Below, piece by piece: positions 52,096 to 61,457 of a stretch of DNA of 64,000 nucleotides. Below the pieces are notes generated by a model. That model saw nothing but the letters and a program-made list of their open reading frames with translations. It had not been told where the DNA came from and did no database searches. Origin of the DNA: Candidatus Hodarchaeota archaeon (GTDB taxonomy: Archaea > Asgardarchaeota > Heimdallarchaeia > Hodarchaeales > Hodarchaeaceae); assembly GCA_029856365.1 (NCBI GenBank), contig JAHQWW010000001.1, positions 17,548 to 81,547 of the forward strand, in the 5' to 3' direction. The position numbers and the translations under genes are program-made. Each line of letters begins with the position of its first letter. The first letter of the stretch is position 1.

Positions 52096-53466
52096 GTGGA
52101 ATTCCCTATAAAAAAGATCATTAAAGTTGATTGGGATTTCCCTAAAAGTAAAACTCAATTTCTGACCCATAAATACCACTCTTATCCAGCGCGATTCATT
52201 CCCCAAATACCACGTACGATCTACGACATATGTCTCGAATCGAGTGGATCTAGAATATTTGATCCTTTCGTTGGATGTGGTACATCATTAGTCGAAGGAG
52301 TCTTATCTCAGAATCACGCAGGTGGAGTTGATCAAAATCCTCTGGCCATTTTAATGTCACGAGTGAAAACACAGCCTTTAGAGGTTAACTCCCTGATTAA
52401 TCTTTGGAAGAATTTTCAAAAATTTGCTCAACATTTTAAGAATTCCAATTCTCAAGTCGTGACATCTCCCGAATCGTTATCAAATAAAGATGAGCTGTAC
52501 ACACCACGAGAGTTCATTTTCCCTAATAGAAATTTATCTATTCGATTCACTAATGATAATATTCAGGCATTCTCATTAATTTTAGATTATATTGAAGAAG
52601 AAATAACAGATATCCAATTTCAGGACTTTTTTAAAGTTGGTCTCTCATCTGTAATAACTACTTTGACAGAATCAAGAAGTTGGAGAAAAGTAAACATTTG
52701 GAGCACTTTCCAAACAAAAATTAATTCTATGATACACATTATGGACAAGTTCAGTCATACGGTTATGGGTTTCACTAATGACATGCAAGAAGATATAAAA
52801 CTCGCAGATTCAAGGCAAATATCTTTTATTTCCGATGAAACAATTGATTGCCTAGTTACATCCCCACCATATGTTAATGCGTTGGATTATAATCGAATTC
52901 ATCAGTATAATATGGGTATTCTTGGATATGATTATCGTGCTTTTGCTAAAGCTGAAATCGGAGCTCATGGACACCATATTAGCAACAGATGGAGATTATT
53001 AGCGGAATATTTTGCAGATATGGCTCAATCAATAGTTGAAATGAATAGAATAACCAAACAAGGGAGTGTCATTTGCATTGTAATTGGTGATAGTTGCTTG
53101 GAATATGAGCGTATAAGTTCTCATAGTCACTTTAAAGAATTAGGAGAGCTTTTAGGATTTTCCCACCAATTGACACTTTCACGTAACATTGATTCAACAA
53201 GTAAATCAACTAGTAAAGACATTGGAAACATCTTTTCAGAGTATTTGATATTTTTTACAAAGGATAAAGAATTTGAAAAGGTCTCAGATACTCTAGTCCA
53301 TGAATATATTGAATCAACAATGTTAGCCTATTTAGATCATGTAAAAACAAGTACAGGAACCTGTCTAAGAAATAAACCCGAATTGTCTAAAGAAAGACAA
53401 GAATTAGCTATTCAGAGGGTTGAAGAAGCTATATCAAAAATCAAGAAAGATTGTTGTTCTATTTAA
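52096..53466 (+). CDS. N4-cytosine/N6-adenine DNA methyltransferase with motif I before an SPPY motif IV
   Basis: HSYPARFIPQIPRTIY...IFDPFVGCGTSLVEG (AdoMet motif) at the N-terminus and DCLVTSPPYVNALDY at about aa 255. The GTG start is preceded by GAGGTG. Confidence 0.8.
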   Translation: MEFPIKKIIKVDWDFPKSKTQFLTHKYHSYPARFIPQIPRTIYDICLESSGSRIFDPFVGCGTSLVEGVLSQNHAGGVDQNPLAILMSRVKTQPLEVNSLINLWKNFQKFAQHFKNSNSQVVTSPESLSNKDELYTPREFIFPNRNLSIRFTNDNIQAFSLILDYIEEEITDIQFQDFFKVGLSSVITTLTESRSWRKVNIWSTFQTKINSMIHIMDKFSHTVMGFTNDMQEDIKLADSRQISFISDETIDCLVTSPPYVNALDYNRIHQYNMGILGYDYRAFAKAEIGAHGHHISNRWRLLAEYFADMAQSIVEMNRITKQGSVICIVIGDSCLEYERISSHSHFKELGELLGFSHQLTLSRNIDSTSKSTSKDIGNIFSEYLIFFTKDKEFEKVSDTLVHEYIESTMLAYLDHVKTSTGTCLRNKPELSKERQELAIQRVEEAISKIKKDCCSI

Positions 53467-54409
53467 TATTATTTTGAAAGAATTGATAAAGTCTCCTAGT
53501 TTTGAACTCAAATTGTGTCTGTGAAATTCTTTTCTGTAGAGAACGAACATATTTAGATGTTTCAATCTGCTCTCTATAATCTTCCGTAATTAAAAACCAC
53601 CAAACATTCCATAAAGCCCTATTTATCCATCCTTCCGTACCTTTTTTGTATAACATTTCATAGGAGCCAATAAAAGGTGGGGTGTATAGCTCAAATAAAT
53701 AGGAAGTCAGACTTTTTCCTTTCTTTTTCTTTTTACGAGCTTCATGGATGTAAACTGATCCTTCAGGAGTATAACATGAACATACAGCTGCGTTCCTCCG
53801 CCAACCAATCCAATCTGCAGAATACAAAAAATCTCGAAAAGCAATTTGATGGTAAGGACTTCCAATTCCAAAGCCATGAAACTTCGTTTTAGAGATATAT
53901 GATAATGAAACCAACCAAGACGCAACATCATGAACACTTCCAGGTTGATTTATCTTGAATGCTGGAACCATTCCTCCTAATCCCACGTAATCTTTTGAAG
54001 GATATGAATTTCTTGTATCAGGTAGGTGAATAACTGGTATGATGTTATAATCAAATTTCTTGGTCAAATAGATCCAGTTCTGTCTTGATTTTTTTGGATC
54101 CCCAATTACGTCCAAATTTACAATTAGATCCTTATCATGAACATTGATTTCAGATAGAAATGACGCATAGTCATCAACTTGGATGTTTACACCAGAGTTA
54201 AAAGCACTATAAGCTCCAGAATCCACCATAATTGGACCTTCAAAAGAGAAATAGTCATGAAGGCCTTTTGAAACCATTTCAGCTTTCTTTTTTCTAAAAG
54301 ACCAATACGAGAATATTATTCCTGTATGATTTTCTGTCATCTTTTTATGAATAATCGGTTCGATTGACCAGGGGAAAATACCTGGTACAACCCCTAAGTA
54401 TAGTTGCAA
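53459..54409 (-). CDS. DpdA-like / tRNA-guanine-transglycosylase (TGT) superfamily protein, paralogue 1
   Basis: IMVDSGAYSAF (cf. TGT DSGGFQ, DpdA DSGAF), YVGLGGMVP, HGFGIGSPYHQIAFRDFLYSADWIGW (cf. GVGxP...GxDxFD), a CSC remnant of the Zn site, and a helical C-terminus. 316 aa, no PUA domain. Confidence 0.6.
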   Translation of the reverse strand: MQLYLGVVPGIFPWSIEPIIHKKMTENHTGIIFSYWSFRKKKAEMVSKGLHDYFSFEGPIMVDSGAYSAFNSGVNIQVDDYASFLSEINVHDKDLIVNLDVIGDPKKSRQNWIYLTKKFDYNIIPVIHLPDTRNSYPSKDYVGLGGMVPAFKINQPGSVHDVASWLVSLSYISKTKFHGFGIGSPYHQIAFRDFLYSADWIGWRRNAAVCSCYTPEGSVYIHEARKKKKKGKSLTSYLFELYTPPFIGSYEMLYKKGTEGWINRALWNVWWFLITEDYREQIETSKYVRSLQKRISQTQFEFKTRRLYQFFQNNIK

Positions 54410-54571
54410 AGGTTACTCCTCTGGAGTTCTGCTGATTTTATAACCTGATTCCTCAAGATTTAAAAAAAATCACACACATTTTTAATTCGTATGGGAGAAT
54501 TAATTTTAATATGAAACTAATTAATGCTGGTAACGAATTAGCTTGAATTCACTTTGTCAGGTGGTATTATT
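54410..54571. promoter_or_regulatory. Divergent intergenic region between DpdA-like 1 and the DUF362 operon
   Basis: 162-bp AT-rich spacer with TATA-like tracts (tttaaaaaaaatc, tttttaattcg) and an AGGTGG Shine-Dalgarno-like sequence 8 nt before the ATG at 54572. Confidence 0.3.
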
Positions 54572-60985: not shown

Positions 60986-61037
60986 GAACCGTAATATAAT
61001 CAATAAAATAGAAAAAGAGAGATGCGATGTGAAAAAT

Positions 61038-61457
61038 ATGACAGTTTTTCAATCCGAAATACAACTAAAAGATACTCATGAAACTGAAATTGTAGATATT
61101 ACTTCTGAGTTAGAACGTGTTGTTAAAAAATCTGAAGTTAAATCGGGGGTTGTAAGTGTATTTGTTGCTGGTTCTACTGGGACGATTATTACTCTAGAGT
61201 ATGAACCAGGGCTTCTACGTGATATTCCAGTCTTTTTAGAGCGTATAGCACCTAAATCCATTGATTATTTCCATGAACAGACATGGCATGACGGCAATGG
61301 GCACTCACACGTTAGAGCATCTTTATTAGGACCATCCTTGACCATTCCAATTAATCAGGGGCAGATGATTCATGGCACTTGGCAGCAAGTTGCATTCATG
61401 GAATTAGATGTTAAGCCACGAAGACGTCGTTTATATGTCACTGTCATTGGAGAATAA
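61038..61457 (+). CDS. YjbQ/UPF0047-family protein (secondary thiamine-phosphate synthase-like)
   Basis: GSTGTIITLEYEPGL...HDGNGHSHVRASLLGPSLTIPI..G....GTWQQVAFMELD is the family signature. ATG at 61038. Confidence 0.85.
   Translation: MTVFQSEIQLKDTHETEIVDITSELERVVKKSEVKSGVVSVFVAGSTGTIITLEYEPGLLRDIPVFLERIAPKSIDYFHEQTWHDGNGHSHVRASLLGPSLTIPINQGQMIHGTWQQVAFMELDVKPRRRRLYVTVIGE

Follow-up and report, generated by a model that had tools for sequence, protein, structure and literature searches.

The stretch of DNA considered here, hereafter the window, comprises 64,000 nucleotides of contig JAHQWW010000001.1 from a Candidatus Hodarchaeota archaeon. The system in question is a set of genes at window positions 52096–61457, organized around two proteins of the TGT superfamily that we call TGT-like 1 and TGT-like 2. 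By profile comparison and predicted structure, both are TGT-fold proteins of the DpdA radiation, outside the tRNA-modifying TGT clades, and they are linked in a conserved gene order to a small DUF6884 protein and a large DNA methyltransferase. An Asgard origin had been suggested by a first-pass annotation made from the sequence alone, and it proves correct, the host group being that of the Heimdall/Hodarchaeales archaea. The module is laid out as follows.

52096–53466, plus strand: methyltransferase 1, an alpha-class SPPY DNA methyltransferase; accessory, found in the window's clade only; convergent with TGT-like 1.
53459–54409, minus strand: TGT-like 1, a transglycosylase of the viral-type DpdA family, 316 aa; core; divergent from the operon.
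54410–54571, no strand: AT-rich spacer separating TGT-like 1 from the divergently transcribed plus-strand operon, as read from the sequence.
54554/54572–55474, plus strand: DUF362 protein (PF04015, 2.4e-38); accessory, found in the window's clade only.
55419/55443–55997, plus strand: DUF6884 protein, a putative miniature of the YaaA/DUF328 (DpdC) superfamily (PF21818, 8.9e-12); core.
56007–57080, plus strand: TGT-like 2, an Asgard-restricted paralogue of the DpdA branch, 357 aa; core; 9-nt gap after the DUF6884 gene.
57117–58415, plus strand: MFS transporter (MFS_1, 3.5e-39); accessory, found in the window's clade only; 36-nt gap after TGT-like 2.
58553–60985, plus strand: large beta-class N6-A/N4-C DNA methyltransferase, 810 aa; conserved partner; 137-nt gap after the MFS gene.
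60972–61457, plus strand: YjbQ/UPF0047 protein (UPF0047, 1.8e-33; TIGR00149, 4e-33).

All of the open reading frames (ORFs), overlaps, gaps, motifs and domains listed in the first-pass annotation are present at their coordinates. Its domain calls (DUF362, DUF6884, MFS_1, N6_N4_Mtase in both methyltransferases, and UPF0047/YjbQ) are upheld, as are its motifs: DSGAYSA and DSGAFSA in the TGT-like pair, SPPY in methyltransferase 1, and SCSKRK and SAKYG in the DUF6884 protein. Methyltransferase 1 and TGT-like 1 converge, their 3' ends overlapping by 8 nt, and the spacer on the other side of TGT-like 1 measures 162 bp if DUF362 starts at the ATG at 54572. This spacer is presumed to be a bidirectional promoter region, the divergent arrangement being conserved in 15 species loci. 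The DUF362 and DUF6884 genes overlap by 32 nt when counted from the 55443 start; because homologues of the DUF6884 protein are ~161 aa long, however, its true start may lie near 55509, abolishing the overlap. The YjbQ gene, whose homologues are 139 aa long, probably starts at 61038 for the same reason, which removes its overlap with the large methyltransferase. YjbQ is a constant downstream neighbor and is possibly co-transcribed with the module. No Rfam element or riboswitch, such as one for preQ1, was found in the operon region.

The assignment of the two paralogues begins with their fold. AlphaFold2 (AF2) models (pLDDT 93.3 for TGT-like 1 and 87.6 for TGT-like 2) show in each case a barrel plus a helical tail. 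The top Foldseek matches of TGT-like 1 are the archaeal tRNA enzyme ArcTGT (1iq8; E 1e-9, probability 1.0), which is its best structural match in the PDB at a TMq of 0.69, and then bacterial and eukaryotic TGTs. TGT-like 2 retrieves TGT (E 8e-9, probability 1.0) together with viral DpdA-type proteins annotated as “queuine tRNA-ribosyltransferase”, namely those of Sulfolobales Beppu rod-shaped virus 1, Microbacterium phage Megan, Vibrio phage nt-1 and Mycobacterium phage Bella96. Searches of PDB sequences with single proteins and with profiles gave local matches to the DSG motif only, and the DpdA crystal structure was retrieved neither by sequence nor among the top 50 Foldseek matches. The PUA and C-terminal C1/C2 tRNA-binding domains and a conserved CxCxxC...H zinc site are absent from both paralogues; TGT-like 1 carries a CxC that is not invariant in its family, and TGT-like 2 has no cysteine cluster.

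Within the superfamily, curated models place both proteins well outside the tRNA-modifying enzymes. TGT-like 1 scores 31.2 bits against a cut-off of 350 for TIGR00432, 23.5 against 47.6 for TIGR00449 and 16.3 against 26.3 for PF01702, and TGT-like 2 reaches 15.9 of the 350 bits for TIGR00432 and has no Pfam match. Such matches as the two paralogues do give to tRNA-TGT models are weak, local and centered on the DSG motif. Since the DpdAs of phage 9g and of STSV1, viruses which the cited papers report to carry 7-deazaguanines in their DNA, likewise have no Pfam match, the absence of a PF01702 match is normal for this clade. A hidden Markov model (HMM) of the TGT-like 1 family gives 112 bits with 9g DpdA and 80 bits with STSV1 DpdA, with medians of 106 bits for viral DpdAs and 66 bits for a DpdA-like outgroup, and 8 bits with a canonical PF01702 TGT. 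The corresponding figures for the TGT-like 2 family are 17 and 50 bits, medians of 7 and 60 bits, and 6 bits. On these cross-scores, both paralogues belong to the DpdA branch and come from different sub-branches of it. Membership of the canonical ArcTGT/TGT families is ruled out by the curated cut-offs and HMM cross-scores together, and assignment to DpdA4 (DUF6610) was dropped, there being no PF20314 match. ArcTGT (TIGR00432) and TGT (PF01702) share with the paralogues the TIM-barrel fold and the catalytic aspartates; at 10–16% identity, every further comparison separates them. The suggestion of a TGT-fold, DpdA-type pair thus stands: the HMM and structure searches proposed in the first-pass annotation leave both proteins outside the ArcTGT/QueTGT clades, with predicted barrels and catalytic aspartates intact, and the DSGA(Y/F)SA signature on which it had relied is common to both paralogues and 9g DpdA.

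The catalytic residues deserve closer consideration. Structural and mutational work on the DpdA of Salmonella Montevideo has identified three invariant aspartates, Asp95, Asp130 and Asp256, which serve in acid/base catalysis (the DSG residue), base recognition and nucleophilic attack (PMC10164549). The catalytic aspartates of both Asgard paralogues are in register with those of 9g DpdA, STSV1 DpdA and the DpdA-like outgroup. In the TGT-like 1 family alignment D63-S-G-A, D100, H128, G145-G146, H178 and D199 are all invariant, so that the conserved histidines H128 and H178 and the GG pocket motif are retained along with the triad. In the TGT-like 2 family every sequence has D208, and 90% or more have D62 and D102. 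Here, however, P125 and W187 replace the two histidines of other DpdAs, and G148-R149 replaces GG; the lost histidines are invariant or nearly so in TGT-like 1 and the outgroup. S. Montevideo DpdA contacts the base through His181; of the two paralogues TGT-like 1 keeps its histidine pair, and P125, W187 and the Gly-Arg of TGT-like 2 suggest an altered base pocket.

Among DpdAs, TGT-like 1 appears nearest to those of viruses, phage 9g included. It matches phrog_887 at 1.3e-25 over residues 12–289, and a tblastn search with it matched 150 phage records, including the DpdAs of phage 9g, STSV1/2 and EC151; 174 relatives in viral contigs were confirmed, and direct alignment with viral DpdAs gives 25–30% identity. 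With the viral enzymes (the DpdA1-type of 9g and those of STSV1/2) the Asgard proteins share a short, single-domain TGT barrel without PUA domain or Pfam TGT match, as well as the motifs DSGA(Y/F)SA, LD, GG-x-VP and S-x-D-S-x-x-W. They differ in residing on a cellular chromosome, in being inherited vertically across an archaeal order as two deeply diverged paralogues per locus, and in having no FolE, QueD, QueE, QueC or ArcS gene nearby.

TGT-like 2, in contrast, has no match in Pfam, PHROG or PADLOC, and nothing matched it in the phage genome collection. Its family consists of 68 homologues, all from the Heimdall/Hodarchaeales group, and of 1.84 billion representatives searched, just 8 clusters pass E ≤ 1e-30. 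It is 21% identical to TGT-like 1 (hhalign 98%, E 2e-13). The next-nearest profile is that of the DpdA-like outgroup (hhalign 100% probability, E 3e-45), in which 33 of 41 members match Pfam TGT and 23 of 41 match the PADLOC DpdA model PDLC02807. On these comparisons TGT-like 2 represents a very small, Asgard-only family whose closest relatives are archaeal STSV1-like DpdAs. The outgroup branch is characteristically embedded in 7-deazaguanine and DNA-conflict neighborhoods: one locus (L032) carries QueC, HD proteins and a HerA-like ATPase, another (L034) Vut_1, a DUF5591 ArcS-like protein, NurA, HerA and a KAP NTPase, and a third (L030) a second TGT, a PLD nuclease and BrxC-like ATPases. The last of these, which surrounds the nearest outgroup of TGT-like 2, resembles a defense island over L030:883-7640, where an ORC/BrxC-like ATPase, a PF01702 TGT, a 289-aa protein of unknown family, the 281-aa TGT-like protein P0190, a PLD-family nuclease and a BrxC/BrxD ATPase follow one another, and the contig breaks off in a third TGT-like ORF, of which only part is present.

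The DUF6884 protein is the tightest partner of TGT-like 2, and its own affinities bear directly on what the module may do. It scores 45.8 bits against PF21818 (cut-off 30), while its match to PF03883 (1e-3, 19 bits against a cut-off of 29.6) leaves it outside DUF328 proper; in PADLOC it matches PDC-M57A at 8e-10 and DpdC at 0.008. Most of 50 homologues do match PF03883, and NCBI names several of them YaaA. An alignment of Asgard and viral DUF6884 proteins against Escherichia coli YaaA gives 84.7% probability in hhalign (E 6.6e-6) with SAKYG opposite SGLYG, and across the Asgard and viral copies the C, K and Y residues and the S-A-K-Y-G motif are invariant, the window's protein having SCSKRK and VSAKYG. 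According to the Pfam curators, DUF6884 is distantly related to YaaA (PF03883); its members have CxxxK and LSAxxG motifs and are predicted to flip a base in a DNA cleft (PMC11701544). These observations support the view, still one of sequence kinship, that DUF6884 is a remote, miniature member of the YaaA/DUF328 superfamily. That superfamily includes DpdC, the DUF328/PF03883 protein that turns dPreQ0-DNA into dADG-DNA (PMC12839542; PMC10164549), and 88% of bacterial genomes with dpdA also have dpdC (PMC5699537). To read the locus as having no DpdC is therefore misleading, DUF6884 being of the DpdC superfamily.

The same partnership recurs in viruses. Starting from DpdA, a DUF6884 ORF lies beside it in 5 of 80 viral loci; starting from DUF6884, a DpdA-like gene is found within 5 kb in 20 of 24 viral loci, two of the others having QueC and Vut_1 and the remaining two ending within ~500 bases of the DUF6884 match. 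Pfam recognizes DUF6884 (38–85 bits), QueC, ParB_N and Vut_1 (the YhhQ preQ0-transporter family) in these cassettes, and DUF6884 is accordingly a recurrent viral partner of DpdA, usually together with QueC, a ParB-like gene and a YhhQ-type transporter. A compact cassette of ParB-like gene, DpdA, QueC, DUF6884 and Vut_1/YhhQ, unnamed in the literature searched, is seen in the IMG/VR contigs L044, L059, L062, L065 and L117-L140, and the order ParB, DpdA, DUF6884, second DpdA, QueC at L140:3387-7060 offers a viral parallel to the Asgard two-paralogue layout. The link is visible only in IMG/VR contigs and by HMMs, a tblastn search of isolated phage genomes with DUF6884 having returned nothing. Viral cassettes and Asgard module have in common a DUF6884 gene directly beside DpdA, often overlapping it, an adjoining transporter, and the invariant C...K and SAKYG motifs. 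The viral sets differ in carrying QueC, a ParB-like gene and Vut_1; the Asgard module has none of these, has an MFS or EamA transporter or no transporter at all, and adds a methyltransferase. No paper in the searchable literature links DUF6884 or a YaaA-like protein to DpdA, and searches on DUF6884, PDC-M57, DpdA in Heimdallarchaeota and archaeosine in Asgard archaea found nothing relevant. For the haloarchaeal virus HRTV-29 a lone DpdA and a separate “peroxide stress protein YaaA” are listed without connection (PMC8651126). As a component-level finding, then, the DUF6884–DpdA partnership is unmatched in the literature searched.

How widely the Asgard arrangement is conserved was assessed in the 22 species-level genomes that have TGT-like 2, all of them Heimdall/Hodarchaeales, with the island proteins mapped by tblastn. 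In 20 of the 22 loci the gene immediately before TGT-like 2 is DUF6884, and in 17 TGT-like 2 is followed by the large methyltransferase, in some core-form loci after only 10–20 nt; TGT-like 1 is divergently upstream in 15, and three more loci are cut by contig ends. YjbQ follows the large methyltransferase in every locus that has that enzyme. The loci take three forms, by identity to the window's TGT-like 2.

Long form (the window's clade), at least 72% identity: SDR ... methyltransferase 1, TGT-like 1 (minus strand), DUF362, DUF6884, TGT-like 2, MFS, large methyltransferase, YjbQ, orf147 ... HTH.
Core form, 57–66% identity: TGT-like 1 (minus strand), DUF6884, TGT-like 2, large methyltransferase, YjbQ, orf147.
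Solo form, 46–52% identity: TGT-like 2 alone.

The core of the module is thus TGT-like 1, DUF6884, TGT-like 2 and the large methyltransferase, to which DUF362, the MFS transporter and methyltransferase 1 are additions of the window's clade. The gene arrangement is far beyond chance, and conservation of gene order in relatives, which had been named beforehand as a test, is borne out. Because the flanking genes are housekeeping genes (TFIIB, HflX, the glycine-cleavage P protein and CysRS) and the identities of the module proteins track those of their housekeeping neighbors, we regard the locus as vertically inherited rather than mobile. GC content and composition are uniform across the window, which contains no tRNA gene or integrase. 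With housekeeping synteny also seen in closed chromosomes, a mobile or viral island is rejected, and the description of an “island bracketed by methyltransferases” does not survive either.

Several further features of these loci may be recorded. The orf147 of the scheme above is a 147-aa ORF without family match, at 61629–62072 downstream of YjbQ, which occurs at 54–88% identity in all loci having the large methyltransferase. In a closed Heimdallarchaeota chromosome (CP070695.1) a 533-aa gene without Pfam match lies between TGT-like 2 and MFS (L001:10149-11750). In another closed chromosome (CP070760.1, locus L012) TGT-like 2 is truncated to 83% coverage and annotated as partial, and MFS, the large methyltransferase and YjbQ were not found in the 10 kb downstream, which suggests that this copy of the module is rearranged or decayed.

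The large methyltransferase matches N6_N4_Mtase in two stretches (2.5e-41) and the PADLOC MTase_III model at 9e-63. The duplication noticed in the first-pass annotation is real, the N- and C-terminal halves matching each other by BLASTP at 1e-8, with catalytic motifs kept only in the C-terminal half (DPPF at 432 and FCGSG at 638). The N-terminal half (58553–59700) has DLSM and DLSVDFGVS and has lost the DPPY-type and FxGxG motifs. From this distribution, the protein is a fused pseudo-dimer, with one catalytic copy and the other probably devoted to DNA recognition. It was also considered as a deazaguanine methylase of the DpdM type and rejected, DpdM being a DUF3109 protein. Methyltransferase 1, absent from core-form loci, matches PADLOC MTase_II over its full length (4e-39) and N6_N4_Mtase at 1.4e-8, with FVGCG at 58 and SPPY at 256. 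DUF362 occurs only in loci whose TGT-like 2 is at least 72% identical to that of the window; it belongs to the same Pfam clan as DUF2088/LarA (PMC11770544), resembles a small-molecule enzyme and has no match in the PDB. The MFS gene occurs only in long-form loci.

A further methyltransferase lies 14 kb from the module.

35332–38538, plus strand: Eco57I/MmeI/PglX-like gamma-class methyltransferase, 1068 aa (PF07669, 2e-26, and TaqI_C).

In PADLOC it matches the type IIG model at 2e-44, over profile positions 431–1195 only, and also DrmMI and PglX. Its orthologues abut TGT-like 1 in ten core-form loci (L002/L017, L013, L016, L018, L019 and L021-L024), with a SIR2 gene between the two in L002/L017, L016 and L024. 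It is a possible ancestral neighbor of the module; in the window's clade ~14 kb of housekeeping genes seem to have been inserted between the MmeI-like/SIR2 pair and TGT-like 1. As the missing restriction nuclease this neighbor finds no support, since it matches only the methyltransferase and target-recognition part of the type IIG profile and the N-terminal alignment of its orthologues contains no PD-(D/E)xK motif. The adjacent SIR2 has no PADLOC match and is the size of a housekeeping sirtuin. In the window the cluster spans 33091–39287 and consists of a 409-aa N6_N4 methyltransferase (33091–34320, minus strand), the MmeI-like enzyme, and a 250-aa SIR2 (38535–39287, minus strand) that is convergent with and overlaps it.

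Equally informative is what the locus lacks. Neither the window nor the Asgard loci contain QueC, FolE, QueD, QueE, ParB or Vut_1 by HMM and phmmer searches. An HMM built from viral ParB-like genes found no DpdB-like ParB ORF there, nor is a ParB Pfam domain present among annotated neighbors, and the 10 kb around each of the 22 loci hold no DpdD-K helicase or nuclease gene. The absences reported at the outset (DpdB, queC/D/E, folE and a helicase or nuclease module) therefore hold for the window and its relatives alike. With the bacterial Dpd system of Salmonella Montevideo (dpdA-dpdB-dpdC plus dpdD-K) the module shares the pairing of a TGT-superfamily enzyme with a YaaA/DUF328-superfamily protein, the catalytic aspartate triad and a cellular rather than viral setting, the bacterial system being associated with the marking of self DNA. 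It differs in having no ParB-like DpdB and no DpdD-K helicases or nucleases; in a DpdC counterpart that is a ~160-aa DUF6884 protein in place of a ~310-aa DUF328 protein; in the pseudo-dimeric N6-A/N4-C methyltransferase of its operon; and in being a vertical locus as opposed to a horizontally transferred island. As for the source of the base, three unrelated transporter families adjoin DpdA–DUF6884 modules according to lineage, namely Vut_1/YhhQ, MFS and EamA, which supports salvage and strengthens the earlier idea of an imported base; by this analogy the MFS protein is a candidate importer of a base precursor. The EamA/DMT case is that of L015:8315-9460 and L020:8315-9460, loci with no adjacent TGT-like 1, where the transporter gene stands directly upstream of DUF6884–TGT-like 2 on the same strand.

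Our preferred reading, to which we give about an even chance, is that the Heimdall/Hodarchaeales Asgard archaea have at this locus a DpdA-type module for DNA base exchange, chromosomal and vertically inherited. By TGT double-displacement chemistry the two transglycosylases would then exchange guanine in duplex DNA for a base of the 7-deazaguanine type, the aspartate of the DSG motif acting as acid/base and that of S-x-D-(S/W)-x-x-W as the nucleophile, linked covalently to the DNA in the intermediate. The base pocket of TGT-like 2 appears remodeled, so the two paralogues probably differ in target sequence, in inserted base, or in both. By analogy with DpdC and its conversion of dPreQ0 to dADG, the DUF6884 protein would work on the base once it has been inserted into DNA and flipped out. 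This base, or a precursor of it, would be salvaged rather than made locally; in the window's clade MFS would import it, with DUF362 as a possible processing enzyme. The pseudo-dimeric N6-A/N4-C methyltransferase encoded in the same operon would add a second mark; as a bona fide DNA methyltransferase, this operon partner also provides the DNA context of the proposal. Since no nuclease is linked to the module, the marks most likely serve as self-labeling, protection or an epigenetic signal rather than in classical restriction-modification.

Several points weigh against this assignment. Bacterial DpdA needs a DpdB-type ParB ATPase in vitro, and the locus has none; nor are there preQ0 synthesis genes nearby, in the window or in the Asgard loci. 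PADLOC DpdA models match neither paralogue directly. TGT-like 2, which has lost two conserved histidines, could be non-catalytic or act on another substrate. The link between DUF6884 and YaaA is remote (the 84.7% hhalign probability given above), so that chemistry like that of DpdC stands as no more than an analogy. Most relatives lack the MFS and DUF362 genes, and lineage-wide vertical inheritance beside housekeeping genes is more typical of RNA modification or core metabolism than of defense.

This last consideration favors the idea of an RNA-modifying pair, perhaps a heterodimer like the eukaryotic QTRT1/QTRT2, that would insert a 7-deazaguanine into tRNA or rRNA, with DUF6884 tailoring the base on RNA and the linkage to DNA methyltransferases reflecting no more than synteny. 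A vertical, lineage-wide locus with housekeeping flanks and no nuclease would suit such a role, as would ArcTGT as the best PDB match of TGT-like 1, its weak local TIGR00432 matches, and an AlphaFold3 model, cited by Pfam, in which YfjM, a DUF6884 member, sits on a DNA-RNA hybrid. Downstream genes of the syntenic block are conserved too, so that conservation of gene order alone is no proof of function. We nevertheless consider an RNA substrate unlikely. The scores fall far under those required of a tRNA TGT (31 against 350 bits, 16 against 26 bits), C1/C2/PUA domains and a conserved zinc site are lacking, and the family HMMs recognize the 9g and STSV1 DpdAs and not a canonical PF01702 TGT. In addition, this DUF6884 subfamily is found almost exclusively in viral DNA-modification cassettes, and a large DNA methyltransferase stands 10–20 nt downstream of TGT-like 2 in core-form loci.

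If the substrate is DNA, the exchange reaction might yet serve restriction, or might not be an exchange at all. The module could be the modification half of a Dpd-like restriction-modification defense whose nuclease lies elsewhere or is the MmeI/PglX-like enzyme; DpdA is, after all, the modification enzyme of bacterial Dpd restriction-modification (PMC10164549). The Eco57I/MmeI-like enzyme, with type IIG as its best PADLOC match, abuts TGT-like 1 in ten core-form loci, and outgroups of TGT-like 2 lie beside a PLD nuclease, BrxC-like ATPases, NurA/HerA and a KAP NTPase. Yet the MmeI-like match is confined to the methyltransferase and specificity part, with no PD-(D/E)xK motif in orthologues, all 22 loci are free of helicases and nucleases over 10 kb, and strict vertical inheritance with uniform composition is unlike defense islands, all of which makes a restriction-modification half improbable. 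A slightly slimmer likelihood attaches to DNA base excision, repair or surveillance, in which one or both TGT-fold proteins would remove a damaged or virus-type modified base and DUF6884 would handle the resulting site. Housekeeping-like inheritance suits a repair role, abasic and RNA-base lesions captured YfjM, for which base flipping is predicted (PMC11701544), and DNA glycosylases that target 7-deazaguanine DNA are known defense effectors (bioRxiv 2025.10.29.685425); the absence of base-synthesis genes and DpdB from the loci, and the remodeled pocket of TGT-like 2 with its two lost histidines and Gly-to-Arg change, point the same way. TGT-fold enzymes, however, are only base exchangers in the literature examined, the Dag glycosylases are not reported to have the TGT fold, and both paralogues retain the full exchange triad. 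Transporters of three families, and the QueC adjoining in viruses, bespeak base supply and not just removal.

Within the preferred DNA base-exchange reading, a more specific proposal can be made, which we advance tentatively and think has rather less than an even chance. The chromosomal DNA of Hodarchaeales/Heimdall archaea would bear a lineage-wide 7-deazaguanine-type mark of their own, made from a salvaged base by two DpdA paralogues without DpdB, processed by a DUF6884 “mini-DpdC” that also serves many viruses, and joined to adenine/cytosine methylation as a restriction-independent system of epigenetic marking or self-protection. No description of such a module was found in the searchable literature, in keeping with its having been called undescribed from the start. 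In the literature examined, 7-deazaguanines in DNA have so far been reported from phages, archaeal viruses and patchy bacterial dpd defense islands. If the proposal is true, a cellular archaeal genome would be routinely hypermodified with no obvious restriction partner, and 7-deazaguanine chemistry would extend from arms-race camouflage towards epigenetics or genome protection. The Heimdall/Hodarchaeales lineage is placed near the origin of eukaryotes. Such a mark would also have consequences for the sequencing, cloning and restriction of Asgard DNA, and DUF6884 would gain a candidate function in the tailoring of deazaguanine bases on DNA.

Two other gene sets in the window merit mention. At 29917–32006 a radical SAM/SPASM protein with an N-terminal PqqD-like domain is followed by an overlapping class I S-adenosylmethionine (SAM) methyltransferase and preceded by a 500-aa protein without family match, a set that looks like peptide maturation of the RiPP (ribosomally synthesized and post-translationally modified peptide) type. 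At 49401–51209 lie two adjacent genes for PNPOx-like proteins (the pyridoxamine-5'-phosphate-oxidase fold), one of which has a multi-pass membrane domain (DUF7530-like) as fusion partner; among relatives, this pair is present only in the locus of the nearest one (L006).

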